The position numbers and the translations under genes were made by a program. Source: an uncultured Actinomycetes bacterium (GTDB lineage Bacteria > Actinomycetota > Thermoleophilia > RBG-16-64-13). From it: a DNA stretch of 64,000 bases. The notes under the pieces are model-generated. The model saw nothing but the letters and a program-made list of their open reading frames with translations, was not told the origin of the DNA and made no database searches. The stretch is taken from positions 200,926 through 264,925 of the forward strand of contig CAWASM010000001.1 of assembly GCA_963784835.1 (NCBI GenBank). The letters are read 5' to 3'. This document shows, one piece after another, positions 31,038 to 53,295 of the stretch; the stretch's first letter is position 1; each line of letters opens with the position of its first letter.

Positions 31038-32233
31038 CTAGACCGCCTCCACCACGGTGGCGATGCCCTGGCCGCCGGCGATGCAGAGCGTGGCCAAGCC
31101 GTAACGCGTGCCCCGCTTCTTCATCTCGTGCAGCAGGGTCGTGAAGATCCTCGCGCCGGAGCAGCCCAGCGGGTGTCCGAGAGCGATCGCGCCGCCGTTG
31201 ACGTTGATGTCGGCCATGCGGTCGCCATGCCCAGTTCCTTGATCACCGCGAGCGCCTGAGCGGCGAAGGCCTCGTTGAGCTCGATGAGTCCCATGTCGTC
31301 CAAGGTGAGACCGGCGTTGGCCAGCGCCTTGCGGAGGCAGGGGCCGGTCCGATGCCCATGATCTCCGGAGACACGCCCGGCGACGGCCATGCCTCTGATG
31401 ACCACCATGGGCTTGAGGCCTCGCCTGCTCGCCTCCTTCGCCGACATGACCACCGTGCACGCGGCCCCGTCGTTGCGGCCCGGAGGCGTTGCCCGCCGTC
31501 ACCGTGCCGCCGTCTTTGAACACCGGGGACAGCGCCGCCAACCCTTCAAGGGTGCTCCTGCGCGGATGCTCGTCGGTGTCGAAGACCACCGATGGCCTTC
31601 TTCTGCTGATCTCCACCGGCACGATCTCCTCTTTGAAGCGTCCCGACTCGATGGCGGCGAAGGCCCGTTCTGGCTCTCTAGCGAGAAAACATCCTGCTCT
31701 TCGCGGCTGATGCCGTACTGGACCGCCAGGTTCTCGGCGGTCATGCCCATGGTGAGGTTGGCCGTAGACCTCGATGGGCTGCGAGCGCGGTTGGCTCTCG
31801 GTGTTGGAATCGACCAACACCGCGTTGCCGGCCCCGTAGCCGTAGCGAGCGCCTCTCAGATAGTAGGGGGCTTTGCTCATGTTCTCGACGCCGCCCGCCA
31901 GCGACGATGTCGGCCTGGCCGGCCATGATGGCCATGGCGGCGTTGTGGATGGCCTGCAGACCCGAGCCGCATTGCCGCATGACCGTGTAGGCCGGTATCT
32001 CGACGGGCATGCCCGCCTTCAGCATCGCTACGCGAGCCAGGTTGGCGGCATCGGCGCTCTGCTTGGTCTGGCCGAGGATGACCTCGTCCACCGCTTCCGC
32101 TTCCACCTGCGCCTGCTCTGAGCGCCTCGAGGATGACGATCTTGCCCAGATCCTCGGGCTCCACGTCTTTGAGCCCTCCGCCGAGCCTGCCTACCGCCGT
32201 TCTGACGGCACTGACGATGACGACTTCTTCCAT
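31038..32233 (-). CDS. acetyl-CoA C-acetyltransferase (thiolase), at least four frame breaks
   Basis: Pieces in ORFs 31877..32233, 31741..32106, 31038..31880, 31499..31750 and 31121..31453 assemble to [16 protein letters not shown]...[10 protein letters not shown]...NEAFAAQ...[20 protein letters not shown]...[13 protein letters not shown]. Confidence 0.85.
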
Positions 32234-32285
32234 TCAGGCCTTTCCCAGTCTTTCGTTCGCTGCCAGGGATGCGACTGCTCTGAGT

Positions 32286-33106
32286 CTAGAACGGCTCCAG
32301 CATGATCTCGCCCAGGTCGACGTCGGTCTGCGTGTAGACCTCGAGTCACCATGGAAGCATAGCCGTCCAACTCGATGCCCACCCGGTAGTCGGTGTTCTT
32401 CTCCAGCCCTTCGAACTCGAAGTCGCCGTAGCTGTCGGAGAGGGTCTCGACCGTTCGACCCCCGCCCTCCAGCGTGATCTTCACCCCCTCGGCGCACTCG
32501 CCCGGGACGTCCCGCCGCACCACTTCCCCCACGACGAAGCTTCTTGGGCAGGCCGACGTACTTGACAGTGGGCGAATACCGTATTCGGGATGATAGGCCT
32601 CGGTCTTGAGAGCGGCCGCGGCCTTGGCGATCTCACTGTCGGCATCGTCCAGGTCGCCGAAGACCAGTGCCCCGGTCGGGCAGGCCTCCACGCAGCGGGG
32701 CTCCTTGCCTCGCCTTCGTCCAGCCGATGGGCGCACAGGGTGCACTTCTGCGGGATATCAGCTCGGCGTTCCAGAAGATCACCCGGTATGGGCAGGCGTT
32801 GACAATGGCCTTCTGTCCCTTGGCCTTTGTGGGATCGATGATCACGATGCCGTCGTCGCGACGGTAAACGGCCCCGTCGGCCGCCGCGTCGATGCAGGGG
32901 GCCTTCTCGCAGTGCATGCAGGGGAGCGGGATGTAGTCGAGCTTGGGCTTGGGATAGCTGCCCCGCTCGACCTCCTTGATCTGCATCCAGAACTGGCCGT
33001 CCAGCGGCTGCGGAGCCGAATAGGGGCCGTAGTCGTTGCCGAAGTACTCATCGCGGCAGGCCAGGAAGCAGTTGTGGCAGCCGCTGCACTTGGTCACGTC
33101 GATCAA
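32286..33106 (-). CDS. BthL-like 4Fe-4S beta subunit of a pyrogallol-transhydroxylase-family enzyme (copy 2; at least two frame breaks)
   Basis: (M)IDVTKCSGCHNCFLACRDEY...PCMHCEKAPC...ACPYRVIFWN...CVEACPTGALVFGD, plus a C-terminal Ig-like domain (GDFEFEGLEKNTDYRVGIELDGY...VYTQTDVDLGEIMLEPF). Confidence 0.8.
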
Positions 33107-33129
33107 GCATGCTCAGGCGCGCCATCTGT

Positions 33130-35668
33130 CTAGCCCTCCCATCTTTCGATCTCGATGAGGCAGGAATTGGGCGTCATGCCCGGCGCGTTCTTGGACATCA
33201 TGCGCGAAGGTGTCAGCATGGCGACGCACCCACCCCTGTCGATGGAGTCCGGCCTCGCCCGGCTTCAACGGATCGTACTTGGCCGAGGAGGCGTAGCTGT
33301 GGATGACGCCGGGCCGGACGCGCCCGGTGACCACGGCGATGCAGAGCACCGAGGCCCGGTCGTTGTAGAGCCGCACGATGTCGTGGTTGTTGATGCCCCG
33401 CTCGGCGGCGTCCTCGGGGTTGATGCGCGCCGGCCACCACGCATGGCCGTCCTTCTTGATGCGGTGCATCGGGGATGTCGTTGAGCCAGTCGGTGTGCTT
33501 GTCGTAGTGGCAGTGGAAGCTGAAGCGCGGATGGGGCGAGAGCAGCTGCAGCGGGTACTTCTGTACAGCCCGGGAGTGAGGTAGCCCTCCCAGCTGGGGA
33601 TGTAGCGCGGCACCACCGGCCGCTCTTCGTCATCGGGGAAGTACTGCTTCAGGCTCTCGGACGACGAACTCGATTTTGCCGCTGAAGGTGCCCAGTTCCC
33701 GCGCCTTGTCGGTAAGCCGCTTGGGGTTGCCTGAGGTCGGGGGTGTCGCACGCACGGCCCTCGTAGAACCAGCGCAGGCCCGGGGTGGGCTTGTAGTCGT
33801 CGTTGATGTTGATGATGTGGTAGCCCTTGCGGTTGAACTCCTCCCAGCTGATCGTCCTTGGGCAGGTCGGAGACGTCGAAGAAGGCCTTGACCCAGTCCA
33901 CCTCGGTCTTGCCGTCGGTGAACTCGTCGCTGCAGGCCCATCTTCTCGAAGATGCAGCGCGAAGATCTCGTAGTCGGACTTCGATTCCCACAGGGGCTCG
34001 ATGCACTTCTGCTCGCGCACCACGACCCGGTAGTTGCAGCCCGCTGCTGGCGTGCCACGGTGTAGCCGTTGACGGCGGCCCATTCGCCCATGTCGTCGCG
34101 CTCGAAGTTGGTGCAGGCCGGCAGGATGACATCGGCCATGCGGGTCTCGCTGTTGTACCAGACGTCCTGGTTGACCACGAACTCCAGCTTGGGGCTCTGG
34201 TACATGCGCACCCATTTGGTGGTGTCGCTCATGGTGCCCATGAAGGACCCGCCGTAGCGGTACCACAGCTTGATCTCGGAGTAACCCTCCATCGGATAGG
34301 TCGAAATGGGTGAACTGCTGCTCCAGGGACTCTGGCCGCAGAAGCCTTCGCCGTACCAGCTCACCGGCGGGTCGAGGATGGCGTCGGGCACGGTGAGGCG
34401 CCACAGCCGTTGCTTGGTTGGGTTGACGGGGATGTAGTCGCCGGCCAAGGTGGAGGTGAGACATCGGCCACTCGGCTCGCCGTAGCCCGGCACCCAGATG
34501 AGTGGTGTCGGACGGCGCGCCCATGGTGGTGCCCCAGATGCTGCGGCCCGGAGCGCCCAGACCCTGCATGGCCTGCAACAGCACCATCATGCGGGCCCAC
34601 TCGGTGCCGTAGGCCTGGCGACAGGCGCCGCCTTCGCCGCCGCGCGACCCGCCGGAGAGGATGGTGCGCTTGGCGGCCCATTCCCGCGCCAGCGTGCGGA
34701 TGACCCGGGCCTCGACGCCCGACTCCTCGGCCGCCCACTCCGGGGTCTTGGGCTGGCCGTCGGTCTCGCCCAGGATGTACTCCTTGAACTCGTCGAAGCC
34801 GATGGTGCGGTCGCGCGACGTAGTCCTTGTCGTAGGTGTCTTCGGTGATCCACACGTAGGCGATGGCCATGGCCACGGCCGCGTCGGTGCCCTGCCGCGG
34901 GGCGATCCACTTGCCCCCCATCACCGCGTTGGTGTAGTTGTGGAAGGGGTCGATGAAGACCATCTTGACGCCCTTCTCCTTGAGCCACTGCCGCCAGAGG
35001 GCCGAATCCTGGCCGGAGTAGGTGCCGCGGGTGGTGTCCGGGTCGTTGGACCAGTAGACGATCATCTCCGCGTTCTGCAGGGCGTCCTCCAACATGTCGT
35101 ACGGCTCGGGCATGCCCAGCCGCCAGTAGAAGCCATAGCTGTGGGTCGCGCCCCAGTGCCAGCCTTCCCAGCTATCGGGATTGTCCAGCACCGGGGTGCC
35201 TTCGACCATGTTCATGAAGCGGGCGAAGGGCCCCATCTTGTAGCCCACGATGCCCCAGTTGTGATGCGAGGAGGTCAGACCGCTGATGGCCGACCCGCCG
35301 TAGGTCTCCTTGACCCGCTTGATCTCGCCGGCGACCAGAGTCGAGTGCCTCGTCCCAGGAGATGCGCTCATAGGGCGACTTGCCCCGGTTCTGCGGGTTG
35401 CGCTCGCCGTTGGGATCGAAGTCCGACCCGCTTCATGGGGTACTTGATGCGCTCATCGGAATAGATGCGACGGCGTTCCGCGTGCACGTAAGGTGAGAGA
35501 GTGACTTTCTTGGGCGGCGAGTACTTCTTGCCGCCGGCCTCGATGACCCAGGGCTTGTAGTCATCCGGCGTCGACGACCAGCGGGCGGATCCGGGTGATC
35601 TTGCCGTCCTTCACATAGACGGAGACGGGCCCGCTATTGGTGCAGTTAGTGAACACCTTTTCAGCCAT
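33130..35668 (-). CDS. AthL-like molybdopterin (bis-MGD) large subunit, pyrogallol hydroxytransferase family (copy 2; many frame breaks)
   Basis: Hand-assembled: MAEKVFTNCTNSGPVSVYVKDGKITRIRPL...YPMKR.DFDPNGERNPQNRGKSPYERISWDEAL...NPDSWEGWHWGATH...ILPACTNFERDDMGEW...LLSPHPRFSFHCHYD...LIEIERWEG. No N-terminal Cys cluster and no Tat motif, as in Pelobacter AthL (recalled from memory). Confidence 0.8.
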
Positions 35669-35827: not shown

Positions 35828-36639
35828 ATGGCCACGAAGACAGCACCGCGAGACACCGATGCCTTTCAAGTGAGAGCGCTGACGCGGGGCCTCGCGATCC
35901 TGTGCCTGTTCGACGTCGACCATCGGGAGTGGACCATCGACGAGATGGCCGAGCAGACCGGCCTGGTCCGCATGACCGTCTATCGCATGGCGCGCACGCT
36001 CGGAGTCCATGGCGTTTCTGGTGCGCGATACTTCGCACCAATCGTTACCGGTTGGGGCCGGCGACCATCGCCATGCGCTATGTGTCAGACGACCAATCGG
36101 GTTTCGTCAACGCTGCCCGGCCTTTCCTGGAAGCCCTGGTGCGAGAGACCGGCGAGTCGGTCACCCTGGCCGTGGAGGTCGACGGCTATCCCGGTATGCG
36201 TGGACATCCTCAACACCACCCGCCCCTTCAAGCGCAGGACCGCCCCTGGCCGGATCTTGGGCGACGTCGGGCACCGTCCACGGCAAGATCTTCGCCGCGT
36301 TCAAGTCGCCTGAGGGGCGCCAGGCCATCCTGGCCGAACCCCTATTGCCGAGGACATCGGACACCCCACACCGATCAGGGAATCCGGTGGTGGCCGGAAC
36401 TGGACGAGCGTGGCCCGCGAGGGCGTGGCCTACGACATCGAGGGCACTACGTAGGGCACCTGCGCGGTGGGGCCCCCGTGCGCGACCAGTTCGGCGCCGT
36501 CGTAGCGGCGATCTCGGTGGTCATGCCCACCGGGCGTTTCGGGCCGGACGAAAGAGCCCTGTGCACCCAAGCGGTCAAGAAGGCCGCCACGTCGTTCTCA
36601 GCCTACCTGGGCTGGACTCCTGGAAGGTCCGCCACCTAG
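35828..36639 (+). CDS. IclR-family transcriptional regulator (several frame breaks)
   Basis: MATKTAPRDTDAFQVRALTRGLAILCLFDVDHREWTIDEMAEQTGLVRMTVYRMARTL..., then pieces in ORFs 36009..36683 and 35770..36639 (...GTCAVGAPVRDQFGAVVAAISVVMPTGRFGPDE...). Confidence 0.8.
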
Positions 36640-36747: not shown

Positions 36748-39382
36748 ATGGCAGAAGAGAACCGCAAGAAGGTCGACGTCAGCGTCGACAAGGTCACGAT
36801 CAAGAACCTGGCCATGGGCGGGCTGCTGGGGGGCGGCGGAGAGTGCTTCGTCGATGTCAAGGACGGTAAGGCCGTCACGGATCAGACCGTACAAGTACGA
36901 CTGGAAGTAGGACTTCGAACAGCTCAACCCCTGGACTATCGAGCGCAACGGCGAGACGCTGAGGCCCGCTGACGAAAGCCCTTCCCGCGCCGTTCTCCCT
37001 CGCCTACAAGAAGAGGACCTTTTCGCCCAACCGGATGAAGTTCCCCATGGTCCGCGTCGACTGGGACCCCGACGGCGAGCGCAACCCCCAGAACCGCGGC
37101 AAGAGCAAGTACAGGCGCATCTCCTGGGACGAGGCGACCGACATCATCGCCGCCGAGATCAGGCGCATCCACAAGGAATACGGCCCGCTCGCCATCCTCG
37201 CCCAGGGCGACGGCCACGGCGAGTACAAGACCATCCACACCCCCCACGGCCACCAGGCCCGGCTGCTCGACATGATGGGTGGCTTCACCCAGCAGGTCCG
37301 CAACCCGGACAGTTGGGAAGGCTGGTACTGGGGAGCCAAGCACGTGTGGGGCCAGGGCTTCCAGGGCATGATGTCGCCGGCGGCCAACCTCATCAAGGAC
37401 ATCTCCGAGAACAGCGACATGGTGCTCAAGTGGGGCTGCGACGAAGAGACCACCCCCTGGGGCTTCACCGGGCAGTACGCCAGCCGCATCTGCCAGTTCT
37501 GGACGCGAGCGGGCATCAAGCAGGTGTACATCTGCCCCGACCTCAACTACGCCGCCGCCGTCCACGCCGACAAGTGGATCCCCGTGCTTCCCAACACCGA
37601 CGCCGCCCTGCAGCTGGCCATCATCTATGTGTGGCTGACCGAGGGCACCTGGGACAAGGACTACGTCGCGACCCACGCCGTGGGCATGGACAAGGTGGCC
37701 GACTACGTGCTGGGCAAGGACGAGGACGGCATACCGAAGACCCCCGAGTGGGCCTCGAAGAAGTGCGGCGTGCCCGAGTGGACCATCAAGGCGCTGGCCC
37801 GGGAGTTCGCCAAGAACACCACCTCGATCATCCACTACTTCGGCGGCTCGGCCTTCCGCGGCCCCTACTCGCACGAACCCGGCCGGCTGGAATGCGTCCT
37901 CCTGGGCATGCAGGGCCTTGGCGGGCCGGGCGTGCATCAGTGCCAGATGACCTACTTCGGCATGCCCCGGGCCGAGGGCCTGGGGAGCGTCCGCTTCTTC
38001 AACCCCGACGCTGACCGAGCGCCTGAGCAAGCCCTGCTGGACCACGGTCCACGCCTGGGGCCCGCAACTCATCCCCAAGACCCTCATCCAGGACGCCATC
38101 CTGAAGCCGCCGCTCGCCTTCAACGGCAGCGGCGGCCAGGAGTGCCAGACCGAGGAGCAGTTCGTCCAATACACCTATCCCATCGCGAAGGAGAAGGGCG
38201 GCGTGCCCATCCACATGATGTGGACCGACACCCCCTGCCGCATCACCTGCTGGAACCACGGCAACTGGACCATCGAGGCCATGCAGGACCCGAACATCGA
38301 GTGCGTCGTGGCTCAGCACCCCTGGCTGGAGAACGACTGCCTCTACGCCGACATCGATCCTGCCGGCCAACACCACCCTCGAAGTCGAGGACATCGTCAC
38401 CACCACCCGGCAGGGACCGCACTTCCCGAGCGTCTCCATCCAGGAGCAGGCCATCCTGCCCCTCGGCGAGTCGAAGAGCGACTACGAGATCGTGGCCGCG
38501 ATCGCCGAGAAGCTGGGCTATGGCGACGCAGTTCACCGGCGGCATGACCACCAAGGACCTGCAGAAGCTCGTCTTCGACGCCATGAAGATGGACAAGCTC
38601 ACCACCTGGGAGGACTTCTACGAGAAGAAGACCTACGTGTACTCCACCGCGCCACGACTGGGAGCAGGACCCGCCCGGCTTCCGCAAGTTCTACGAGGAT
38701 CCCAAGGCCAACCCGCTCCCGACCCCCAGCGGCCTGCTGGAGTTCTACTCCGCAGCGGCTGGCCGAGCACTTCCCCGACGACAAGGAGCGGCCGCCGTTC
38801 CCGAAGTGGGTGCCGAAGGGCATCACTCACGACGAGGACCTCTCCAGCGAGCGCGCCGACATGTTCCCGCTGCTGCTCATGTCCAACCACCCCCGCTGGC
38901 GCACGCACGCCCAGGGCGACGACATCAGCTGGACCCGCGAGACCCCCACCGGCAAGGTGCTGGGCTTCGACGGCTACAGGTACGAGCCCATCTGGATCAA
39001 CCCGGCCGACGCCGAAGCCCGCGGCATCAAGGACGGCGACGTAGTCAAGATCTTCAACGAGCGCGGCATCGTGCTCGTGGGCGCCCGGGTGTGGGAGCGC
39101 ATCAGGCCCGGCGTGGTGTACGTGGACCACGGTGCGCGGCACGACCCGCTGGTGCCCGGCAAGGTGGACCGCGGCGGGGCCATCAACACCATCGCTCCCA
39201 ACGGGCTCACCTCCAAGAACTGCTGCGGCCAGGCCACCAGCGGCTACCTGGTCGACGTGCAGAAGGTCAAGAACGAGGAATGGGAGAAATGGCGCAGGGA
39301 CCATCCCGAGGCCTTTGCCAGGAAGTACGACCAGGGTGCCGGGTTGCGCTTCGACGCCTGGATAGAGGGAGGCGACAAATGA
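36748..39382 (+). CDS. AthL-like molybdopterin large subunit, pyrogallol hydroxytransferase family (copy 1; several frame breaks)
   Basis: About 878 codons. MAEENRKKVDVSVDKVTIKN...FVDVKDGKAV.., MKFPMVRVDWDPDGERNPQNRGKSKYRRISWDEATDII..., NPDSWEGWYWGAKH, ...PTPSGLLEFYS...LLMSNHPRWRTHAQGDD...NPADAEARGIKDGDVVKIFNERG. Confidence 0.85.
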
Positions 39383-40207
39383 AGGTGTTCGTCATCGACG
39401 TCGGGCTGTGCGTGGGCTGCTACGCCTGCCAGTTCGTCTGCAAAGACGAGCACGTCGGCAACGACTGGTCGCCCATCGCCAAGCCCCAGCCCGACACCGG
39501 CCAGTTCTGGATGAGGCTGGACGAGCACATCCGCGGCACCGTGCCCAAGGTCGAGATGCACTACGTGCCCAACCCGTGCATGCACTGCGACGAGCCGCCC
39601 TGCATCCCGCCCTGCCCCATCGAAGGCGCCATCTACAAGCGCGAAGACGGCCTGGTGATCATCGACTCGGTGAAGTGCACCGGCTGCGGGCGCTGCGTGG
39701 ACGTGTGCCCCTACGAGGCCATCTACTTCAACGACGACCTCAACCTGGCGCAGAAATGCACCGGCTGCGCCCACCTGCTGGACGGGGGCGAGTGGAAGAT
39801 CCCCCGCTGCGCCGACGCCTGCCCCACCGAAGCCATCAAGTTCGGTGAGGAGAGCGAGTTCGCGGCCGAGATCGCCAGAGCCGAGGTGCTGAGACCCGAG
39901 CTGGGCCACAAGCCGCGCGTCTACTACCTGAACATCCCCAAGAAGTTCATCGGCGGGACGGTCTACGACCCCATCGACAAAGAGGTGGTCGTCGGAGCCA
40001 CGTGCACCCTCGCCGGTGCGGACGGCAAGAAGCTGACGGCGACCACCGACGGCTTCGGCGACTTCTGGTTCCGCGGCCTGGCCGACGGCGCCACGCTACA
40101 AGCTGACCATCGCGGCCAAGGGCTTCAAGGACAAGACGTTCGACGCCATCAGCACCGAGAAGGACGTCAACCTGGGAGACATACCCTGGCTAGCCCTGGC
40201 GAAGTAG
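39379..40207 (+). CDS. BthL-like 4Fe-4S beta subunit (copy 1; one extra base near 40090)
   Basis: ATGA overlap with the alpha stop. MKVFVIDVGLCVGCYACQFVCKDEH...PCMHCDEPPC...KCTGCGRCVDVCPYEAIYFN...KCTGCAHLLD...RPELGHKPRVYYLN. Ig-like tail TDGFGDFWFRGLADGATYKLTIAAKGFKDKTF... Confidence 0.85.
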
Positions 40208-40237: not shown

Positions 40238-41290
40238 TCAGCTCGCCTTCGCAGGAGCGGCGTCAACGAGGCCCCTAAGACCAAGGGCGAGCTCCTCCAG
40301 TTGCTCGACCTCGCTCTCGACCTGTCGAGTGCCAAGTACCGACTGCTTGCCGGCCTCGTCGATGTCCTGCATGGCCCGGCTGATCTGCTCCATGCCGGCC
40401 AGTTGCTGACGGCTCGTCGCTGAGATCTGCATTGTCGCATCTGCCGCTTTGTTCGCGACGATGACCCTTGCGCTGATGTTGGTCAGGGCGTTGTTGGCCT
40501 CGTTCCTGCCCATCTCGACGGCCTCCCGGCCCTGTTCCGCCGCCCGGACCACCATGCTGCTCGCCTTCTGGATCTCGCTGAGAACGCCCCGCACCTGCGT
40601 CACCGCGTGCTTGGATTGCTCTGCCAGGCTCTTGACTTCTTGGGCAACCACGGTGAAGCCCTTGCCGGCATCCCCGGCTTTGGCCGCCTCGATAGACGCG
40701 TTCACGGAGAGCAGGTTCGATTGCTCGGCGAGATCGTTGACAGTTGCGATGACATCTCCGACCGATAGGACTTCCTCGTTCAGCCGGTCGATCGCCTCGA
40801 CGACCAAGTCAACGTCGGCCTGTATCCGCTCGAAGTGGGCATAGTTCTTGTTCGCCGAATCCTCACCGAACTTGGAGGTCTCTACCACACTCCGTGACAG
40901 CTCCGACGCCTCAGAGGCCTTCTCCTCTGCGAGGATGGCCGTCTGCTTCACTTCCTCCACGGTTGCGGTCGTCTCGTTGGTCGCCGCCGAGGTCTGCGCG
41001 GCAGCCGCCGCTACCTGCGAGGCCACAGCGAGGAGCCGGGCCGTCGCGCTGCGAATGCTCTCGACGGCAGCCCTGAGCCTAAGCCGTACGACCCTGGTCA
41101 GAAAGGTCGTTGCGGTCGCGCCGATCGCCAGCGCGACAAACGCGACAGCCGTCATGACGAAGATCATGACGGTCGCCCCCTGGCTCAGATCGTTAGTCCC
41201 GGTCATCACGTAGATACCAGTTCCCACCACTACGACCAGCAGCACGAGCGTCGCAGTCAGCGCTACGGTCATCCGCCTCATGATCGACAT
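40238..41290 (-). CDS. methyl-accepting chemotaxis protein with a minimal (about 10-aa) extracytoplasmic loop
   Basis: 350-aa intact ORF. Two N-terminal TM helices, then an MA signalling domain (...[41 protein letters not shown]...). Confidence 0.85.
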
Positions 41291-41626
41291 CCCAGATCCC
41301 CTTATCTAGCTGCCCAGACGTCAGCTCGCTGTTCTGTGGATAGATATCGGCCGATACCGGGAGAGGTTTACTACTAAGTAGGAAACGTGTGGGCGATCAG
41401 CCGTTTCAGCGCTGGCTGGGTGGTTTGCGGCTCGCGAGGTCCCAAATGCTCTATGTTGAGAGAGCGTCCAAGGACAGACTGCGACGAGAAGTAAAGAATA
41501 TGATCTTCCCAGACGTTTTTGCAGAGTGAGTCACGTACGACGGAACGTGGAGGCGATCCGACGGTGCACGCCAGGACCATAGAAGCGCCAGGCAGACGGG
41601 CGGACCGAGGGGCTGATCAGGGAGGC

Positions 41627-43645: not shown

Positions 43646-44461
43646 TTACCCCCAGGAAGCCCCCAGATGCCCCACCCCCGCGGCAAACGCGTCGATAACC
43701 GTCATGCCGCCGTCGGCGATCACCGTCGCCCCGGTCATGAAACGCGAGTCGTCACCGGCCAGGAAGACGAACACGCCGGCGATATCGGCAGGGGTGCCGA
43801 TGCGATTCAGCGGCACGTTTGTAGCCACCAGGTCGAAGACTCCGTCCATGTCGGTGTTGAGGTGCTTTGTCAAGGGTATGAAGTTGCCCTCGAGCATGGT
43901 CGTGCGTATGGGACCCGGGCAGATCACGTTGCAGCGCACGTTGTACTTGCCGTAGTCCACAGCCACCTGCTTGGTGAGGTGGATCACCCCCGCCTTGGTG
44001 GCGCAGTAAGACGGGGCGCCGGGCGGGGCTACGACACCGGCCACAGAGGCGACGTTGATGATGGAGCCTCCCCCACCCTCGATCATCTTGGGGATAGCCG
44101 CTTTCATCATCAGAAACGGTCCCGTGAGATTGACCTCGAGCACCTCCCGCCAGATGGCGGGGTCCAGGTCGACCACAGGGGCGTTACTCTCGATCGCTGC
44201 GTTGTTCACGAGGATGTCCAGCTTGCCGTCGATGGCCATAGCCGCCTCGACCATGCGTTCGGCGTTTCCGTCCTCGCTGACGTCGCCGACGAATATCTTG
44301 ACGCTGCCGGCCGGCAGCGAGGCCGCCACCTTCTCCAGCATCTCCTTGCGGCGGCCGCTGATGAGGACCTTGGCCCCCTCGGCTACGAAGCGCTCGACCA
44401 CCCCCGCACCGATGCCCGTGCCACCTCCGGTGACAAGCGCGACTCTTCCCTCTAGTTGCAT
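43646..44461 (-). CDS. short-chain dehydrogenase/reductase (SDR)
   Basis: 271-aa intact ORF; TGGGTGIG, NNAA, S...YCATK. Confidence 0.9.
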   Translation of the reverse strand: MQLEGRVALVTGGGTGIGAGVVERFVAEGAKVLISGRRKEMLEKVAASLPAGSVKIFVGDVSEDGNAERMVEAAMAIDGKLDILVNNAAIESNAPVVDLDPAIWREVLEVNLTGPFLMMKAAIPKMIEGGGGSIINVASVAGVVAPPGAPSYCATKAGVIHLTKQVAVDYGKYNVRCNVICPGPIRTTMLEGNFIPLTKHLNTDMDGVFDLVATNVPLNRIGTPADIAGVFVFLAGDDSRFMTGATVIADGGMTVIDAFAAGVGHLGASWG

Positions 44462-44473: not shown

Positions 44474-45400
44474 TTACGCTTTGGGCGGGTCGCCGTCGTA
44501 CCCGCCGGTGGGACTCAGAAAGATCTTGCCGGGCTCGCCCGGCAGCGGAGTGAACCAGTCGGGACAGTGCTTCGGGAAGAGCAGCCTGGCCTGCCAATGG
44601 AGGGCGAAGTCCTCGGCCTTGACGTCGGCGTAGTGCTTGTTCATGCGCTCGACCAGGTCGGCGCCGTCCTTGGCCTTGTTGTAGGCCTCCTCGTACACGT
44701 CCAGGTAGCGCACCGACCAGTCGACGCAGTCGGTGTAGGTGCGCTTCTTGTCTTCCTGGACCTCCTCGAGGATCTTGAGCTTGGCCTCGTCGTGGTGTCC
44801 GGGGATGACGATGCGGGCACCGAAGTCCTTCAATCTTTGGATGTCCTCGCGCCACTTCACCCGGCGCTCCACGTTGCTCTCGATGGGCCACAGGTTGCAG
44901 TCGTGGAAGGCGACATCGGTGGCACACGCCACCCCGATGGACGGCACCCACACCACGGAGTTGTTGATGCTGTCGCCCTCCCAGCCATCCGAGAACAGCA
45001 ATTCTTCGCCTTCCAGCTCGAGCCGGGGCTCGTGCATGGGCATGGGGATGGTGGTCTTGCTGGGGATGTCGGGACCGAAGCGGTCGATGGCCCACATGTC
45101 CACCTTGTCGCTGGAGGTGAAGACCACGTCCTTGACCACGCTGGGCAGGGCCACGATCTTGGCCTGGGGGAAGGCGTTCGCGAGGACACCCAGCCCGAAG
45201 TGGTGGTCGGGGTGGAAGTGCGAGACGTAGATGTGGGTGAGGTTCTTCCGCATGGGGATGAGCTGAGCGACCATCTTGTGGGTGTCGCTCAGAAGCTGGG
45301 AAGCATCGATGAGGATGGCATCCCTCTCGCCGTAGAACAGCGTGGAGTTGCTGTTAAAGCCCAGGTAGCTGTGCAGAAACACCCTGTACTTCAGAGACAC
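44474..45400 (-). CDS. metallo-beta-lactamase-fold hydrolase
   Basis: 308-aa intact ORF with SHFHPDHHFG (HxHxDH). Confidence 0.85.
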   Translation of the reverse strand: MSLKYRVFLHSYLGFNSNSTLFYGERDAILIDASQLLSDTHKMVAQLIPMRKNLTHIYVSHFHPDHHFGLGVLANAFPQAKIVALPSVVKDVVFTSSDKVDMWAIDRFGPDIPSKTTIPMPMHEPRLELEGEELLFSDGWEGDSINNSVVWVPSIGVACATDVAFHDCNLWPIESNVERRVKWREDIQRLKDFGARIVIPGHHDEAKLKILEEVQEDKKRTYTDCVDWSVRYLDVYEEAYNKAKDGADLVERMNKHYADVKAEDFALHWQARLLFPKHCPDWFTPLPGEPGKIFLSPTGGYDGDPPKA

Positions 45401-45419: not shown

Positions 45420-46269
45420 CTAGCCGCGGCGCGAGTAGCCTAGAAAGGCCGAGATGGCCGCGGCCGACGCCTTGACGTCCTCTGCGTAGGCCTTCTTCTC
45501 CTTGGGTCCGAAACGTCCGGTGGGGACGATGACGGAGATGGCCGCCACCACAATGCCCAGTTGGTCGCGCACGGGCGCTGCCACCGCGCAGGTGCCGATG
45601 TTGCGCTCCTCCAGGTCGAACGCCACCCCGGCGCTCGCCACCCTGCCCAGCTCTTCGGCCAGGGCCTTGGGCTCGCTGATCGTGTTGGGAGTCAGCTGAG
45701 GATGAGGGCTGTCGAGGATGCCTTCCCTCTCCGCGCCGGACTTGAAAGCCGCGAAGACCTTGCCGTTGGCGCTGGCGGTGTCGCCGATGATCCGTCCCAC
45801 TGCGACCTCCCGGCGGAGAGGGCCGAGGCGTGTCGACCATGTCGACGCTCACCGCGACCCCGTCGACCTCCATGGCCAGGGTGGCCGCCTCGCCTGTCTT
45901 CTCCGTGAGTTCCTGCAGATAAGGGCGGACGATAGCCGCCATCTCGGCATAGCCATCCGACAGATAGGTGGAGGAGAGCAACGCCGGGCCCAGATGATAC
46001 CGGTTGGTCACCGAGTCGCGCACCAGGTACCAAGCCGATTCCATCGTCCGGATCATCCGGTAGGCGGTCATCCGGGGAAGGCCGGCCCGTTCCGCGATCT
46101 CATCCAGCGTCCACTCGCGGTTCTCCGCGTCGAAGAGCGAGAGTATGGATAGCCCCTTGGCAAGGGCGCGCACCATGAAGGCGCTGTCCCCACCGTTGGC
46201 GGACTTCGCACGTTGTTCTGCCTTTTCTGCCGCACCGGCCATGTCGCCCACTTCCCCCAAATCACTCAA
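45420..46269 (-). CDS. IclR-family transcriptional regulator (one frame break near 45810)
   Basis: N-terminus in ORF 45391..46269 (...FMVRALAKGLSILSLFDAENREWTLDEIAERAGLPRMTAYRMIRTM...). C-terminus in ORF 45420..45800 (...GTCAVAAPVRDQLGIVVAAISVIVPTGRFGPKE...). Confidence 0.85.
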
Positions 46270-46270
46270 C

Positions 46271-47059
46271 TCACACGAACGCCATAGTACCGCCGTCGGG
46301 ATACAGGATAGTACCCGTGACGAAATCGGAAGCCGCCGAAGCCAAGAACACCGCCGGCCCGATAAGGTCTTCCACCGTGCCCATGCGCCCCATGGGGATG
46401 TTGTTGAGCACCCTCTCGTAGCGGCCCGGATCCTGCTTGACGGTCTCCGCGGTCATCGGCGTCAGGGTGATGATGGGGCCGAGAGCGTTGACCTGCACGT
46501 TCTTCGAGGCCAGCTCCACGGCCATCTGCTTGGTGATCATGTCCACGGCGCCTTTGGTCGCGGTGTAGCCGAGGTTCCCGCCCAGCGCGCCACGCTGTCC
46601 CCTTATAGACGACATGTTGATGATCTTGCCGCCCCCTTGCTCGACCATGTGCTTCGCGAAGTGCTTGCAGCACAGCATGACTCCACGCACGTTCACGTTG
46701 AAGAGCTTGTCCCAAGCGTCCAGGGGGAACTCAGTCGCCGCCGCCTTGATGTTGAAGCCTTGGGCGTGCAGCACCACGTGGACCCGCTGCATGTCGCGGA
46801 CTGCGTTTCCCACGATCTCCTCGACGTTCTTCTCTTGGTCCTGGCCGGCCACGACCGGATAGGCGAAGGGCTTCTGCCCCGTGGCGGCCTCTATCTCCGC
46901 GGCCGCGTCCGCCGTGGCCTCGATATTGATGTCGGCGATGGCGACCCGCGCCCCATAGGTGATGAATCCTTGGGCCAGGCCGCGGCCTATGCCTCCGGCG
47001 CCGCCGACCACAACGATGTTCTTGCCCTTCAGTGAGAACAGGTCAGTGCGCACTTCCAT
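46271..47059 (-). CDS. short-chain dehydrogenase/reductase (SDR)
   Basis: 262-aa intact ORF; VGGAGGIG, YTATK. Confidence 0.9.
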   Translation of the reverse strand: MEVRTDLFSLKGKNIVVVGGAGGIGRGLAQGFITYGARVAIADINIEATADAAAEIEAATGQKPFAYPVVAGQDQEKNVEEIVGNAVRDMQRVHVVLHAQGFNIKAAATEFPLDAWDKLFNVNVRGVMLCCKHFAKHMVEQGGGKIINMSSIRGQRGALGGNLGYTATKGAVDMITKQMAVELASKNVQVNALGPIITLTPMTAETVKQDPGRYERVLNNIPMGRMGTVEDLIGPAVFLASAASDFVTGTILYPDGGTMAFV

Positions 47060-47104: not shown

Positions 47105-47944
47105 TCAGACCTTCTTGGCGAGGCCCAGGATCTCGCGCGTTTCTGCGGCGTTGGCAATCTCGCGACCAGCGAGTCTGCCGAGTTCGACCGCACGGGCCAC
47201 AAGCTGCGGGTTGGTGGCCAACACGCCCTTCTCGAAGAAGATGTTGTCTTCAAGACCCACTCTCAAGCCATTGCAGCCCTCGGCGAGGCCGATGAGCATG
47301 CAGGACATGTGGTCTTTGCCGATGCCCGTGATGGACCACGTGGAATCGGCCGGGATCTTGGGAAGCAGGTAGGCAACGGACTCGGCGGTGCCGGGCATGC
47401 CACCGGGAACGCCGAGCACGAACTGACAATGGACCGGGGTCTTGAGAAAGCCCCTCTTGATGTAGTGATTCATGTTGCCGATCATGCCGGCGTCGAATAT
47501 CTCGAGTTCGGGCTTGACGCCCAGCTCCTGCGTGAGCGTGCCCAGCTCTTCCAGGAACTTGGGCTCATTGAGGAACACGTAGCTGTTCGCCCAGTTCATC
47601 GTGCCGGGGTCATAGGAGCACATCTCAGGCTTGACAACATCAAGGTGGCTCATGCGCTGCTCGTAGCTGAACTTGGAACCAGAGGTGGTGACGTTGATCA
47701 CCACATCAAGCCCCGCTTGGGCCACTTTCTCCCGTATCTTGCCGACCACTTCCACGAAGATGTCTTTGTCCATGATGTTGAGGCCCTTGGCGTCTCGCAC
47801 ATGGACATGGAGTATGGAGGCCCCGGCCTTCACGCACTCGAGACCGTCCGCTGCGATCTCGTCGGGCGTGATCGGGACGTGGGGGTTCTGTTCTTTGGTG
47901 GTACCCACTCCGCAGAGGGCGCAGGTGATGATCAGTTTGCTCAT
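47105..47944 (-). CDS. beta-keto acid cleavage enzyme (BKACE/DUF849, 3-keto-5-aminohexanoate cleavage enzyme family)
   Basis: 279-aa intact ORF MSKLIITCALCGVGTTKEQNPHVPITPDEIA...ASILHVHVRD... Confidence 0.85.
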   Translation of the reverse strand: MSKLIITCALCGVGTTKEQNPHVPITPDEIAADGLECVKAGASILHVHVRDAKGLNIMDKDIFVEVVGKIREKVAQAGLDVVINVTTSGSKFSYEQRMSHLDVVKPEMCSYDPGTMNWANSYVFLNEPKFLEELGTLTQELGVKPELEIFDAGMIGNMNHYIKRGFLKTPVHCQFVLGVPGGMPGTAESVAYLLPKIPADSTWSITGIGKDHMSCMLIGLAEGCNGLRVGLEDNIFFEKGVLATNPQLVARAVELGRLAGREIANAAETREILGLAKKV

Positions 47945-49252: not shown

Positions 49253-50026
49253 ATGAGATGGGGCATGGTCATCAACCTTGCCAAGTGCACCAGGTGCCAC
49301 GCATGCGTGGCCGCATGCAGGATCGAGCATTTCCTGCCTCTCAGAGTCACTTGGCCGCGGTTGATCGCTCTTGAGACTGACGACGGCATCAGCGTCGACG
49401 TCTCCACCTATCCGGTCAGGTGCAACCAGTGCAAAGAGGCGCCGTGCGTGGATGCTTGCCCCACTGAGGCTTCCCACAAGCGCGAAGACGGCATCGTCGC
49501 CATCGACTCCGACAAGTGCTTCGGCTGCCGGTACTGTGTCATCGCCTGCCCGTACCAGAATCGCACCTACCTCTCCAGGAAGAGGGATCCTGGCTACTTC
49601 CCCGGCCATGCGGAGACTGAGTTCGAGAAGAAGGGCGACAAGATCTATCCGCACCAGCGAGGCACCACCGAGAAGTGCAACTTCTGCATGGAGCGCATCG
49701 ACGCCGGCATGGCCAAGGGACTCAAGCCGGGCACCGACCGCGACGCTACTCCCGCCTGTGTGAACATCTGCCAGGCCAGGGCCCTCACCTTTGGTGACCT
49801 TGACGATCCCAACAGCGAAGTGTCCAAGCTCATCCGGGACAAGAGCGGGTTTGTGCTCCACGCCGAATACGGCACCGAGCCCTCCGTCTACTACATCGAC
49901 TACAAGCTGGGCGGCGCCCCCTCTAACAAGGCTCCGGTAGAAGCGCAGACCGGCAGCCACATGCAGCACTTGAGCACCGTCTACGCTCCGAGCAAGCCCA
50001 AACTCGCCAAGAAGAACGCGGACTAG
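49253..50026 (+). CDS. 4Fe-4S ferredoxin-type subunit (DmsB/PsrB-like)
   Basis: 257-aa intact ORF with four Cys clusters (CTRCHACVAAC, CNQCKEAPC, CFGCRYCVIACP, CNFC...C). Confidence 0.9.
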   Translation: MRWGMVINLAKCTRCHACVAACRIEHFLPLRVTWPRLIALETDDGISVDVSTYPVRCNQCKEAPCVDACPTEASHKREDGIVAIDSDKCFGCRYCVIACPYQNRTYLSRKRDPGYFPGHAETEFEKKGDKIYPHQRGTTEKCNFCMERIDAGMAKGLKPGTDRDATPACVNICQARALTFGDLDDPNSEVSKLIRDKSGFVLHAEYGTEPSVYYIDYKLGGAPSNKAPVEAQTGSHMQHLSTVYAPSKPKLAKKNAD

Positions 50027-50042
50027 GTAGGGGAGTGGCCAC

Positions 50043-51003
50043 ATGAACGCAAGGACAGCCCGTCAATGGATGGTCACCCATGAGTGGATGATCAAGCCTA
50101 TGGCGCAGACCGAATGGATCGAGGGCAAGGGACTGCTTGTCTGGCTGGCGGAGGTCTTCTCTGCTCTCGGTACCGGTCTCTATCTCGTGTCGCTTTTCTT
50201 CAGCCAGTCGCATCCGCGCACCGCCTTCTGGGGAGCGCTCCTAGGATGGATCGGGATAGCGATCTTCAAGCTACCCCTGCACTTGGCCTACCTCGGCAAG
50301 CCTTGGCGCTTCTGGAGGAGTTTTCCACCGGTCAGCAACGCCTGGAAGACTTCCTGGTTCGCCCGCGGCATCGTGTTCACCATGATATTCCTAGGCTTCG
50401 GGGCCGTGCAGATACTGCTGCAGGGCCTCATCGGTTTCAACACGGTCACCGGCGGGGGCATCGACGCCGCCAACTGGGTCTTCATGATCCTGGCCGGCAT
50501 GTTCTGTGTGATGACCGCGGTCTACTGCGGATTCGCCATGAGCTTCTGTAAGAGCGTGCCCTTCTGGAACACGGGGCTTCTGCCTTTCGTGTTCTTGATC
50601 ATGGGCGTCGCGGACGGCCTGGCTCTCATCATGGGCGTCGGACTGGCCACAGGCGAAGACGTCGATACCCCCGGCCGAGTCGGTCACCCGCTGGCTGCTG
50701 ATCGTCAACGCCCTGCTCATCATCTTCTACCTGGTGAACGCCAACTACCATTCGACCACGGCCGAGTTGTCGGTGAAAGAGCTCGTGCGCGGCCACGTGG
50801 CCTGGGTTTTCTGGCTGGGCATAGTGCTCATGGGCATCGTGTTGCCGTTTGTGATCTCGATCATCGGTCTCTTCATCGCAGAGGCCACAGGGTTGCTGAT
50901 ATTCGCGATCGTCTGCCACACGATCGGGGCCTTCTCCCTGAAATACGGGGTGCTGAAGGTCGGCATCTACCGGCCGCTCCTTCCCAAAGCCCATGCTTAC
51001 TAA
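50043..51003 (+). CDS. NrfD/PsrC-like polytopic membrane (quinol-interacting) subunit (frame break near 50660)
   Basis: Hydrophobic ORF 50043..51023 is correct up to ...GLATGEDVD. It continues in ORF 50734..51003 (...VRGHVAWVFWLGIVLMGIVLPFVISIIGLF...). Placed between the FeS and Mo subunits. Confidence 0.75.
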
Positions 51004-51033
51004 CAGCACAGCTCGCGTGTTGAGGAGACACTG

Positions 51034-53295
51034 ATGGCAAATAGAGAAGTCGTTTATTCAACCTGCAAGAGCTGCCATGGTGGCTGCGGAGTCAAAGTCA
51101 CCAAGGAAGACGGGGTCATCGTCCATATAGAGGGCAACCCCGACTCGCTCACCGGGGGCACCATGTGCTCCAAGGGTCTCTCGAGCATCCAGCACATCGA
51201 CAACCCCTACCGCCTCAAGTACCCCATGAAGCAGGTGGGCAAGAAGGGCGACGGCAAGTGGGAGCGCATCTCCTGGGACGAAGCGCTCGATACCATCGCC
51301 GACAAGATGAAGGCAGCCATCGCCGAACCCGGGGCCGCAGAGCATCGCCATCTCCCAGGGCACCGGGCGCGGGTACAACCGCTACACCATGCGGCTGGCG
51401 CGCTCCCTCGGCACCGGCAACGCCATCACCCCGGGGTACGTCTGCCACAGCCCCCGCCTGGGCCTCTACGCCCTGGTGACCGGCTACGGGCGGCTCTATT
51501 GCGACTACCACGGCTGGGGCGGCGAGTTCCCCAAGACCCAGATCATGTGGGCCAAGCAGCTGGAGATATCGAGCGCCGACTCCGAGATGTGCTACTGGTT
51601 CATGCGCTCGCTCGACTACGTCAAGAACCTCATCGTCATCGACCCGCGAGCCAGCGCCTACGCGACGCGGGCCAGCCTCTGGATACAGCCCCGCCCGGGC
51701 ACCGACTGCGCCCTGGCCTTGGGCATGATGAACGTCATCATCGAAGAGGAGCTGTGGGACAAGGAGTTCGTCGACAACTGGACCTACGGCTTTGAAGAAC
51801 TGCGTGAGCGGGTCAAGGAATGGACGCCCGAGAAGGTGTCAAATATCTGCTGGATCCCCAAGGAACACGTCATCGAAGCGGCCCGCATGTTGGCCATCGA
51901 CACTCCCGGCTGCATCCAGGTGGGCAGCTCGCTCGAGCGGCAGGCCAACTGCGGCCACACTCTGCGGGCCATCACCTGCCTCATGGGTCTCGCCGGCAAC
52001 ATCGAGCGCCCGGGCAGCATGGTCAGCTGGGTACTCCCCGACACCGGCCTCATCGAGGACTTCAACCTGGAGTTGCCCATCACCGACGAGATGAAGAAGA
52101 ACATCATCGGCGGCGACAGGTTCAAGATGGGCGCCACCCGCACGTGCAACCCCGACACCATGGTCAAGGCCATCAACGCGGGCAAAGCCCCTGTCAAGGT
52201 GTGGTTCAGCGTCGGCGGGCAGCAGATCGTCCACATGGCCAACACCAAAGAGGTCGTCGAAGCTATCGAGAAGGTCGAGTTCATGGTCCATGCCGACCTC
52301 TTCATGGGCCCCATGGCCGAAGCGGCCGACATCGTGCTGCCGGCCGCCCACTGGCTGGAGTTGGACGACCTCTACGACATGCACCCGCGCTTCATGGTCG
52401 AAGCTCACAACAAGGTCGTCGAGCCGCCCGGCGAGGCCAAGTCCGATGCCTGGATCTTCAACGAGATCGGCAAGCGAGTGGTCCCCGACAAGTGGTGGCC
52501 CAACGTGGAGGAGATGCTCGACTACGAGATCAGGAGAGGTGAGAGCAAGGACGGCGGTCCGCTGAAGTGGAAAGAGTTCAGCGAGCGTCTGGTCAGCGGG
52601 TGCTGGGGCCCCGACCAGGTGTACTACAAGTACAAGACCGACTACTGGAGAAGAGGGCGGCGGGTTCCCCACTCCCTCGGGCAAGTTCGAGTTCTAGTCG
52701 CAGCACCTGGAATAGCTGGGATACGACGGCCTGCCGGTCTTCAGCGAGCCGGGCGAGAGCCCGTACTCCACGCCTGAGCTGTACAAGGAATACCCCATCG
52801 TCATGAGCAGCGGCTACCGCCAGCCCTTCTACTTCCTGGGGCAGTACCGCAACATCCCCTGGCTGCGCAGCTTCATGGAGTTCCCCACCTGCCAGCTCCA
52901 TCCCGAGACGGCCAAGCTCTACAGCGTCGAGGACGGCGACATAGATCTGGATCGAGTCGCCCCGCGGCAGGATCCGGCAGAAGCTGCGTACGTTCCCCGG
53001 TATCAAGAAGGGCGTGCTGATGGCCACCGCCAACTGCTTCTACCCGGAAGAGCCGGCGAAGGGCTACCACGGCGTGTTCATCTCCAACCCCAACGTGCTC
53101 ACCAGCAACGACCACCTCGATCCCATGTACGGCTCGCCCGACCTGACCTGCCTGCTGTGCAAGGTCTACAAGGCCAAGGACGAGGAACTCACCGAAGAGG
53201 TCTTCCGCAATGAGGAATACGGCTTCGTGCCGGAGAGCATAGGCGCGACCGAGCCCAAGGGCGCGAAGGTCGACCGCATCAAGATCAAGAGATAG
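51034..53295 (+). CDS. molybdopterin (bis-MGD) oxidoreductase catalytic subunit with an N-terminal 4Fe-4S motif and no Tat signal. Three +1 frame breaks and two in-frame TAG codons.
   Basis: GAGGAG SD then MANREVVYSTCKSCHGGCGVKV...MCSKG. Frames run 1->2 (GGGG run near 51345), 2->0 (near 52650) and 0->1 (near 52950). GYVCHSPR holds a candidate Cys Mo ligand. ...TPSGKFEF*SQHLE*LGYDGLP... Confidence 0.85.

Follow-up and report, generated by a model that had tools for sequence, protein, structure and literature searches.

The window analysed here, a stretch of 64,000 nucleotides from contig CAWASM010000001.1 (GenBank assembly GCA_963784835.1), contains a 22-kb segment (positions 31038-53295) in which an uncultured anaerobic actinobacterium very probably encodes the catabolism of plant-derived trihydroxybenzenes. 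This island combines two pairs of subunits related to AthL/BthL, the pyrogallol-phloroglucinol transhydroxylase of Pelobacter acidigallici (PDB: 4V4C; EC 1.97.1.2), with a third molybdenum or tungsten enzyme, a thiolase and a six-gene operon of candidate lower-pathway enzymes. On balance we lean towards the view, already put forward in a sequence-only reading of this stretch, that the island converts trihydroxybenzenes to acetyl-CoA; the individual steps set out below are deduced from the family assignments of the encoded proteins. We hold to this view because genes for short-chain dehydrogenase/reductases (SDRs), 3-hydroxyacyl-dehydrogenase-family (3HCDH) enzymes, beta-keto acid cleavage enzymes (BKACE) and thiolases recur beside AthL/BthL genes in independent lineages, two of which also carry a cyclase resembling DPGC. 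The gene composition of the island and this linkage bear out the earlier proposal; the lower-pathway genes, on the other side, do not appear to be orthologues of the characterised ones, and DPGC is absent from the window.

The arrangement of the island is not a product of chance, because the same island recurs in L001, L002, L011, L089-L091 and L093 (L-numbers being our labels for related metagenome contigs and loci fetched for comparison). Its genes are intact in L001, L011, L089-L091 and L093, and frameshifted in L002. Once about 51 single-base frameshifts had been corrected, 18 genes became readable in the window's own copy. Families were assigned by Pfam, on intact open reading frames (ORFs) and on frameshift-corrected proteins, as follows:

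31041-32233, minus strand: acetyl-CoA acetyltransferase (thiolase), Thiolase_N and Thiolase_C; 8 frameshifts
32286-33128, minus strand: BthL-like small subunit A (BthL_A), Fer4_11 and CarboxypepD_reg; 6 frameshifts
33133-35668, minus strand: AthL-like large subunit A (AthL_A), 840 aa, PF21423 and match to 4v4c_A; 17 frameshifts
35828-36636, plus strand: IclR regulator, divergent from AthL_A and upstream of AthL_B, HTH_IclR and IclR_C; 7 frameshifts
36748-39379, plus strand: AthL-like large subunit B (AthL_B), 875 aa, PF21423; 7 frameshifts and 1 in-frame stop
39379-40198, plus strand: BthL-like small subunit B (BthL_B), Fer4_11 and CarboxypepD_reg, match to 4v4c_B; 1 frameshift
40238-41290, minus strand: methyl-accepting chemotaxis protein, weak NCBIfam matches to MCP families
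41519-42103, plus strand: ECF sigma factor, Sigma70_r2/r4
42103 to about 43330, plus strand: Kelch-repeat protein, frameshifted, Kelch repeats
43646-44461, minus strand: SDR_a, final gene of the six-gene operon, adh_short
44474-45400, minus strand: metallo-beta-lactamase (MBL)-fold metallo-hydrolase, Lactamase_B
45423-46242, minus strand: IclR regulator within the operon; 1 frameshift
46271-47059, minus strand: SDR_b, SDR
47105-47944, minus strand: BKACE-family beta-keto acid cleavage enzyme, BKACE at 319 bits
47989-48948, minus strand: 3HCDH-family enzyme, 3HCDH_N and 3HCDH; the ORF extends to 49038
49253-50026, plus strand: four-cluster iron-sulfur (FeS) subunit of the third Mo enzyme, Fer4_11, DsrO/QrcC/ArrB-like in NCBIfam
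50040-51023, plus strand: NrfD-type membrane anchor, NrfD; 1 frameshift
51034-53250, plus strand: third Mo/W subunit with bis-molybdopterin guanine dinucleotide (bis-MGD) cofactor (Mo3), 738 aa, Molybdop_Fe4S4, Molybdopterin and Molydop_binding; 3 frameshifts and 2 in-frame stops

All the genes that the sequence-only reading had listed, including the third FeS-NrfD-Mo enzyme, the thiolase and the two IclR regulators, were found at about the positions it gave and in families that Pfam confirms; the MBL-fold hydrolase, the chemoreceptor, the ECF sigma factor and the Kelch-repeat gene are four additions to that list. The genes for 3HCDH, BKACE, SDR_b, IclR, MBL and SDR_a form a six-gene co-directional array with gaps of 12-45 nt, as calculated from the coordinates. 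The island lies on the chromosome, with rpoB and rpoC about 10 kb upstream. The G+C content of the window is about 63%. A mobile-element origin is not supported, as the G+C content of the island resembles that of the rest of the window and no integrase was seen among the ORFs scanned. For the MBL and AthL proteins, the nearest relatives are found in metagenome-assembled genomes (MAGs) of uncultured Actinobacteria/Thermoleophilia, such as Actinobacteria bacterium RBG_16_64_13 and NLV71482.1.

Two unequal transhydroxylase-like pairs and a third molybdoenzyme

In a PDB search AthL_A matched 4v4c_A with an E-value of 1.4e-270 and 903 bits, the next structure scoring 278 bits, and it is 51% identical to AthL of P. 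acidigallici. For the active site we relied on residue roles reportedly described by Messerschmidt et al. in 2004, with the numbering checked against the sequence of 4v4c_A: we take Ser175 to be the Mo ligand, lying beside Asp174 and His144, and Tyr404, Tyr560 and Phe468 to belong to the pocket of the substrate and co-substrate. AthL_A retains seven of the nine residues compared (His144, Asp174, Ser175, Trp176, Tyr404, Phe468 and Tyr560) and differs from the P. acidigallici enzyme in having Lys for Arg153 and Glu for Trp354. It is thus a probable genuine orthologue of the pyrogallol-phloroglucinol transhydroxylase.

AthL_B shares only 37% identity with AthL of P. acidigallici. The His144/Asp174/Ser175/Trp176 core is preserved in it, and within this core His144, Asp174 and Ser175 are common to copies A and B and to their orthologues in L001, while Tyr404 and Tyr560 are deleted, Phe468 is replaced by Gly and Arg153 by Pro. 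The L001 orthologue of AthL_B (91% identical) nevertheless has 4v4c_A as its top PDB match, with 427 bits against 234 for the next. Since copy B lacks Tyr404, Tyr560 and Phe468, the two pairs are not equivalent, and AthL_B is, judged by these residues, a distinct divergent paralogue of AthL_A. Its substrate or reaction probably differs from that of AthL, given the low identity and the loss of the pocket residues. The earlier description of two complete AthL/BthL-like pairs therefore stands as far as the presence of both pairs and the strong relationship of AthL_A to the transhydroxylase are concerned, with the reservation that copy B is a paralogue of a different kind.

In overall organization both pairs follow the P. 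acidigallici enzyme. The gene for the large subunit precedes that for the small one, and both large subunits contain PF21423 (the AhtL-like first domain), Molybdopterin and Molydop_binding domains and are bis-MGD proteins of the DMSO reductase family devoid of an FeS cluster; a direct reading of the sequences also revealed no twin-arginine (TAT) signal in either. Both small subunits combine the FeS-cluster domain Fer4_11 with a C-terminal CarboxypepD_reg-like beta-barrel domain. BthL_B has 4v4c_B as its best PDB match (2.9e-51), the alignment covering residues 4-247 and reaching into the C-terminal domain, in line with the earlier attribution of three [4Fe-4S] clusters and a C-terminal Ig-like domain to such subunits.

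Proteins of the AthL_B type are very abundant, with 4603 matches at E<=1e-20 among 8000 candidates scored, and the AthL_A and AthL_B types are neighbours in about 20 of 80 metagenome loci. Some AthL_B-type relatives, of 72-77% identity, carry annotations that derive them from Chloroflexi RBG MAGs. Amidohydrolase_2-like genes (a label that comes from reading the sequences and not from Pfam) and TRAP transporters flank other AthL_B-type loci (L051, L054, L061, L071; L022, L031, L053, L062 and others). Such neighbours hint that some members of the AthL_B clade act on hydroxybenzoates. In the Rifle aquifer, the Chloroflexi RBG-2 and RBG-1351 have been reported to carry two 'pyrogallol hydroxytransferase' operons per genome, which were read as serving pyrogallol fermentation to acetate (PMC3971608). 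The island resembles these subsurface anaerobes in its two AthL/BthL-like operons per genome. The paralogue types were not separated and the lower pathway was not identified in that work, whereas here active-site residues tell the types apart, and both a lower-pathway operon and a third Mo enzyme are found linked to them.

The best PDB match of this third enzyme, Mo3, is acetylene hydratase (2e7z_A, 5.9e-89, 302 bits), followed by FdhF (186 bits) and PhsA/Psr (169 bits), with 4v4c far lower. Mo3 is 82% identical to an intact orthologue of 734 aa in L058; its N-terminal 4Fe-4S domain is present and the Cys ligand of W/Mo (equivalent to Cys141) is conserved. The catalytic Asp13 of acetylene hydratase (PDB: 2E7Z), which lies beside the FeS-cluster residue Cys12, is replaced by His in Mo3 (CKSCHGGC versus CQSCDINC), and Mo3 is therefore not an acetylene hydratase proper. 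By its structural matches it belongs to the acetylene-hydratase/catechol-dehydroxylase clade. An earlier study places the catechol dehydroxylases of gut actinobacteria in that clade, and used as its criterion an identity above 30% to Dadh or Cldh with E<1e-34 (PMC7028382). Grouping of the Mo subunits with acetylene hydratase had been named in the sequence-only reading as a sign against the pathway: Mo3 does fall there, in a clade that also holds catechol dehydroxylases, and the AthL copies match 4v4c_A best.

An NrfD-type anchor is encoded between the FeS and Mo3 genes, and a TAT signal was found neither in Mo3 nor in the FeS subunit, the N-terminus of which (MRWGMVINLAKC) was read directly from the sequence. 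Like the Eggerthella lenta catechol dehydroxylases, Mo3 has FeS and membrane-anchor partners, and like those of Gordonibacter it lacks a TAT signal and has an MFS transporter nearby; with about 738 aa it is much smaller than those of E. lenta, which have about 130 kDa, and the joining of a membrane anchor with the lack of a TAT signal is described for neither group (PMC7028382). The Mo3 operon diverges from the six-gene operon across a 305-nt spacer and is linked to AthL/BthL genes in L002, L011, L014, L015, L058 and L089-L091.

The proposed lower pathway and ring-opening step

The phloroglucinol pathway of Clostridium scatologenes runs through PGR (the phloroglucinol reductase, an NADPH-dependent SDR with an Arg in the 2'-phosphate pocket), DPGC (a Mn-dependent enzyme of the cyclase family), TfD (3HCDH family) and TAL (BKACE), together with a thiolase (PMC10470551). 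The island covers four of the five steps with the same families (SDR, 3HCDH, BKACE and thiolase) and, like the C. scatologenes cluster, groups them with a regulator and transporters. It differs from that cluster in having no cyclase-family DPGC, with an MBL-fold hydrolase and a second SDR instead. The lower pathway appears analogous, and not orthologous, to the Clostridium one.

We propose the following course for the pathway: 1) AthL_A/BthL_A, predicted to be cytoplasmic and lacking a TAT signal, would turn pyrogallol into its isomer phloroglucinol through a Mo-dependent transfer of a hydroxyl group. 2) Phloroglucinol would be reduced to dihydrophloroglucinol by an SDR, SDR_b being the candidate by context, and SDR_a an alternative because of its NADPH-type motif (GRRKE). 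3) Hydrolytic ring opening would give 3-hydroxy-5-oxohexanoate; as no cyclase-family DPGC is present, the MBL-fold metallo-hydrolase of the operon appears the most likely catalyst. 4) The 3HCDH-family enzyme would oxidise the free acid to triacetate. 5) Cleavage of triacetate by BKACE, with acetyl-CoA as partner, would give acetoacetate plus acetoacetyl-CoA. 6) Acetyl-CoA would arise through the thiolase, presumably co-transcribed with AthL_A/BthL_A. The two IclR regulators would control the two divergent promoter regions. AthL_B/BthL_B, with the same Mo-Ser/Asp/His core and a remodelled pocket, and the Mo3-FeS-NrfD complex, predicted to face the cytoplasm, may act as feeder enzymes whose functions we can only guess: both are probably hydroxyl-shuffling, hydroxylating or dehydroxylating, and would bring other phenolics into the pathway.

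Several loci support the association of these families with transhydroxylase-like genes. In L079 the genes directly beside two AthL/BthL pairs encode a thiolase, an SDR of the SDR_b type (44-48% identical), a regulator of the MerR type, a cyclase (PF04199) bearing the metal motif of DPGC, HxGTHxDAPxH, a 3HCDH (49%) and a BKACE (52%). A cyclase and an SDR_b adjoin AthL/BthL in L025, a 3HCDH and a BKACE adjoin AthL in L083, and SDR_b and/or thiolase genes occur near the AthL loci of L033 and L087. When all ORFs flanking 84 AthL loci were clustered without preselection, the recurrent partners, ranked by number of loci, were SDRs (13), Mo3 (11), TRAP permeases (9), 3HCDH (8), NrfD (7), and thiolase, IclR, alanine dehydrogenase and BKACE (6 each). 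The thiolase gene is co-directional with and directly downstream of AthL_A/BthL_A in the window and five relatives, and adjoins BthL/AthL2 in L009, L011, L021, L079 and L087. The position of the IclR gene between AthL_A and AthL_B is likewise filled in L001, L009, L011, L014, L015 and L021.

The individual proteins add further detail. SDR_b is 44-49% identical to the SDRs of L079, L025 and L033. SDR_a has BacC, a cyclohexenol dehydrogenase, as its best PDB match, and nothing labelled phloroglucinol reductase appeared among the top PDB matches of the SDRs; the structure 5g4k, which may be a phloroglucinol reductase, was not used. The 3HCDH enzyme keeps the catalytic Ser, His and Asn, and has lost Lys56 and Asn221, through which Hbd binds CoA, as has TfD; it also shares with TfD a three-residue insertion, the pattern of indels and a C-terminal extension, at an identity of 25-30% to TfD references taken from the text, read by optical character recognition (OCR), of the supplement of PMC10470551. 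BKACE is 52% identical to its L079 counterpart and just 34% identical to the BKACE proteins that hold its operon position in L001 (4754-5608), L002, L011 and L089, where the flanking genes are 75-90% identical, which looks like an in-situ swap of paralogues within the operon. The exact BKACE protein of the window is not on record in public assemblies.

A full-length DPGC query (tblastn, E<=1e-3) returned no match in the 64-kb window, L001 or L002, and none in L011; the same query does find the cyclases of L079 and L025. More broadly, no cyclase homologue was seen in the window or in the stretches of about 20 kb around the seven related islands. As references, an orthologue from C. thailandense served for PGR, its 8-kb locus holding PGR and a truncated DPGC, with TfD and TAL outside; a further DPGC came from Desulfatiglans, and the comparison with TAL rests on the NCBIfam model NF053538 (3,5-dioxohexanoate:acetyl-CoA transferase). 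In a Desulfatiglans MAG (L003, 157-3239) a DPGC orthologue 83% identical to that of C. thailandense adjoins a 664-aa reductase of the old-yellow-enzyme type and a URO-D-like protein.

The MBL-fold protein carries the HxHxDH motif with conserved Asp162 and His202, and its AlphaFold2 model reaches a pLDDT of 94.8. Homologues occur in at least four phyla (Actinomycetota, Chloroflexota, Acidobacteriota and Thermodesulfobacteriota) with identities of 74-91%; the family collapses to one full-length representative at 50% clustering, the next relatives being 45% and then 30-40% identical. SDR_a adjoins the MBL gene in each of the seven related islands, the MBL gene lying 10-13 nt upstream of it in actinobacterial islands (12 nt in the window). 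Among the fetched loci, clusters with MBL and SDR_a have no cyclase and clusters with a cyclase have no MBL gene, although the cases are few. Because of this mutual exclusion we propose the MBL-fold hydrolase as a candidate non-homologous ring-opening enzyme in the place of DPGC. A literature search returned nothing relevant on an MBL-type dihydrophloroglucinol hydrolase, a resorcinol reductase or a cyclohexanedione hydrolase. A similar gap, with PgthAB and PGR present and DPGC absent, has been described in SAR116 genomes (10.64898/2026.07.17.739263).

The tightness of the MBL family, together with its scattered contexts, suggests recent horizontal spread or very strong constraint. Loci of the family outside the window include L005-L008, L092 and L094. 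A link between the window and the MBL context of L094 (EthD, MFS, SDRs) was discarded, as it showed no similarity beyond the generic SDR level. A more far-reaching version of the proposal, which we offer tentatively and regard as rather less than probable, is that MBL and SDR_a would form a non-homologous reduce-then-hydrolyse module, either replacing PGR/DPGC or handling a second isomer such as hydroxyhydroquinone, and that AthL_B/BthL_B and Mo3-FeS-NrfD would be new enzymes of phenol hydroxyl transfer or dehydroxylation.

Objections and alternative readings

Several observations weigh against the proposed pathway. Identity to the C. thailandense PGR orthologue is 31-34% for SDR_b and 27-30% for SDR_a, and neither matches PGR more strongly than it does generic SDRs; the cofactor motif of SDR_b has an NAD-type Asp (VAIADIN), whereas PGR and the SDRs of L079, L025 and L033 have an NADP-type Arg. 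The 3HCDH enzyme is 33% identical to Hbd, against the 25-30% found with the OCR-derived TfD references. BKACE scores 283 bits on Kce of lysine fermentation (cut-off 382) and 181 bits on NF053538 (cut-off 430), falling below both cut-offs, and no lower-pathway protein has an equivalog-level match in NCBIfam. From these values SDR, 3HCDH and BKACE appear as members of the right families in diverged subfamilies, and not as orthologues of the C. scatologenes enzymes, to which the island homologues are only 25-34% identical. Accordingly, of what the sequence-only reading had claimed, two SDRs are present while orthology of either to phloroglucinol reductase was not obtained, and the pairing of BKACE with 3HCDH known from C. 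scatologenes is seen in adjacent genes that do not appear to be TAL and TfD orthologues; the expected grouping of BKACE with phloroglucinol-pathway enzymes failed, its Kce score exceeding that on the triacetate model.

Other objections come from gene context. In L001, L002 and L089-L091 the cluster includes an alanine dehydrogenase (505 bits, above cut-off) as well as class-III aminotransferases, one or two in number, and the phloroglucinol model leaves them unexplained; most metagenome loci of the AthL_B type have no lower-pathway genes nearby. The region of the alanine dehydrogenase and aminotransferase genes spans 7364-9887 and 11800-13164 in L001, and 8833-9948 in L089. As to the ring-opening step, a Foldseek search of the MBL model against the PDB gave generic MBL folds only, the best being an uncharacterised Burkholderia protein, with no functional hint; in Chloroflexota, Thermodesulfobacteriota and other phyla, homologues 74-78% identical to the MBL protein are encoded alone in unrelated neighbourhoods; and with only 64 kb of the genome visible, a DPGC gene may lie elsewhere in it.

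The last two of these points also favour an alternative that keeps the same pathway and makes MBL and SDR_a accessory, as a triacetic acid lactone lactonase, a detoxifying hydrolase or a side branch, the true DPGC being a cyclase gene elsewhere in the genome. MBL-fold enzymes are typically hydrolases of esters, lactones or amides, and the fetched locus of L079 includes an SDR_a-like gene (56% identical) and lacks an MBL gene. We consider this alternative unlikely: the cyclase sits inside the equivalent cluster in L079 and L025, yet none was detected in the window or in about 20 kb around each of the seven related islands, and all islands of the lineage keep the MBL gene inside the operon, just upstream of SDR_a.

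It also seems improbable that the six-gene operon degrades some other beta-hydroxy or beta-keto acid, for example one derived from amino or hydroxy acids, with the AthL-like enzymes acting on hydroxybenzoates or on S- or N-oxides and their adjacency reflecting co-regulation or chance. Pairs of 3HCDH and BKACE are generic for beta-keto acid cleavage, as in carnitine degradation, and this explanation would accommodate Kce as the top NCBIfam match of BKACE, a 3HCDH equally close to Hbd and TfD, and the alanine dehydrogenase and aminotransferases of the related islands; carboxylated substrates would also fit the TRAP transporters and amidohydrolase_2-type genes that neighbour other AthL loci. Against it, SDR_b, 3HCDH, BKACE and thiolase genes, 44-52% identical, are linked with AthL/BthL in five lineages or more, two of which add a DPGC-like cyclase; the thiolase shares a transcription unit with the transhydroxylase orthologue; AthL_A keeps the full pyrogallol pocket; and neither an alanine dehydrogenase nor an aminotransferase is encoded in the window. 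The conversion of trihydroxybenzenes to acetyl-CoA hence continues to be the reading we prefer.

The last question concerns the frameshifts. Broken genes were rebuilt by frameshift-tolerant protein-to-DNA alignment, guided by intact orthologues from related metagenome contigs, and full-length products were recovered for all broken genes of the region. Nearly all mapped frameshifts are +1 single-base insertions outside homopolymer runs. After correction the proteins share 76-91% identity with intact orthologues and have no large deletions (the thiolase, for instance, is 76% identical to its L011 orthologue), and the unbroken genes of the island lie in the same range (MBL 90%, 3HCDH 86%, SDR_a 86%). 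The frameshifts are errors and not decay, because the essential rpoB (17138-20906) is likewise divided, into two overlapping frames; rpoC (13097-17137) is intact. Three in-frame stops are left after correction, a Tyr-to-stop at 36900 in AthL_B, and a Trp-to-stop and a Ser-to-stop, seven codons apart, at about 52700-52730 in Mo3, and these are probably substitution errors. Taken as a whole, the window gives the impression of a long-read assembly that was not polished. Upstream of position 13000 it shows many short ORF fragments. That the island might be a decaying set of pseudogenes devoid of present function, as the density of frameshifts (17 in AthL_A, 8 in the thiolase, 7 each in the first IclR gene and AthL_B) and the stops in AthL_B and Mo3 could suggest, is very improbable and was rejected, given the splitting of rpoB, the near-uniformity of the events, the undiminished conservation of the corrected proteins and the intact versions of the whole island held by short-read assemblies.

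Neighbouring genes and significance

Beyond the Mo3 operon the window encodes the following proteins, all assigned by Pfam:

53385-53831, minus strand: VOC/glyoxalase
54399-55772, minus strand: MFS transporter
56459-57979, minus strand: IOR-like thiamine pyrophosphate enzyme
58316-60508, minus strand: ADP-forming acyl-CoA synthetase

This set is syntenic beside Mo3 in L058 and L089-L091, and the ADP-forming acyl-CoA synthetase would fit a gain of ATP from acetyl-CoA. Just upstream of the island (27895-30176) lie a LarA-like gene of the lactate racemase family and a gene for a B3/4-domain protein, the latter syntenic in L009, L011 and L021. Within the island, the ECF sigma factor and Kelch genes were not seen in any related island, the interval from BthL to SDR_a being free of them in L011 and L089-L091; relatives hold alanine dehydrogenase and aminotransferase genes, or in L089-L091 an aldehyde:ferredoxin oxidoreductase, where the window has the chemoreceptor and the sigma/Kelch pair. 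The chemoreceptor has almost no extracellular domain, only a short external loop; homologues adjoin BthL1 in L002, L010 and L011 and occupy the corresponding place in L093, and the protein may sense cytoplasmic signals in connection with the pathway.

Anaerobic breakdown of polyphenols controls the release of carbon from peat, sediments and aquifers, a matter known as the "enzyme latch" question, and surveys score the capacity for it by PGR, DPGC, TfD and TAL together with AthL/BthL as markers. In the widespread uncultured actinobacterial lineage described here, a probable transhydroxylase orthologue is coupled to a lower pathway likely to escape those markers, since DPGC is missing from it and its SDR, 3HCDH and BKACE are members of diverged subfamilies. 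The MBL-fold hydrolase offers a concrete candidate for the missing ring-opening step; if it and SDR_a do form a module of their own, this would explain why transhydroxylase and PGR genes often occur in the absence of DPGC, and if AthL_B/BthL_B and the Mo3 complex are new phenol-transforming enzymes, they would widen the substrate range of the pathway. The island also links the abundant AthL_B-type clade to an unstudied membrane complex resembling acetylene hydratase, and the separation of this clade from the true transhydroxylases counsels caution against blanket annotation of such proteins as 'pyrogallol hydroxytransferase'.

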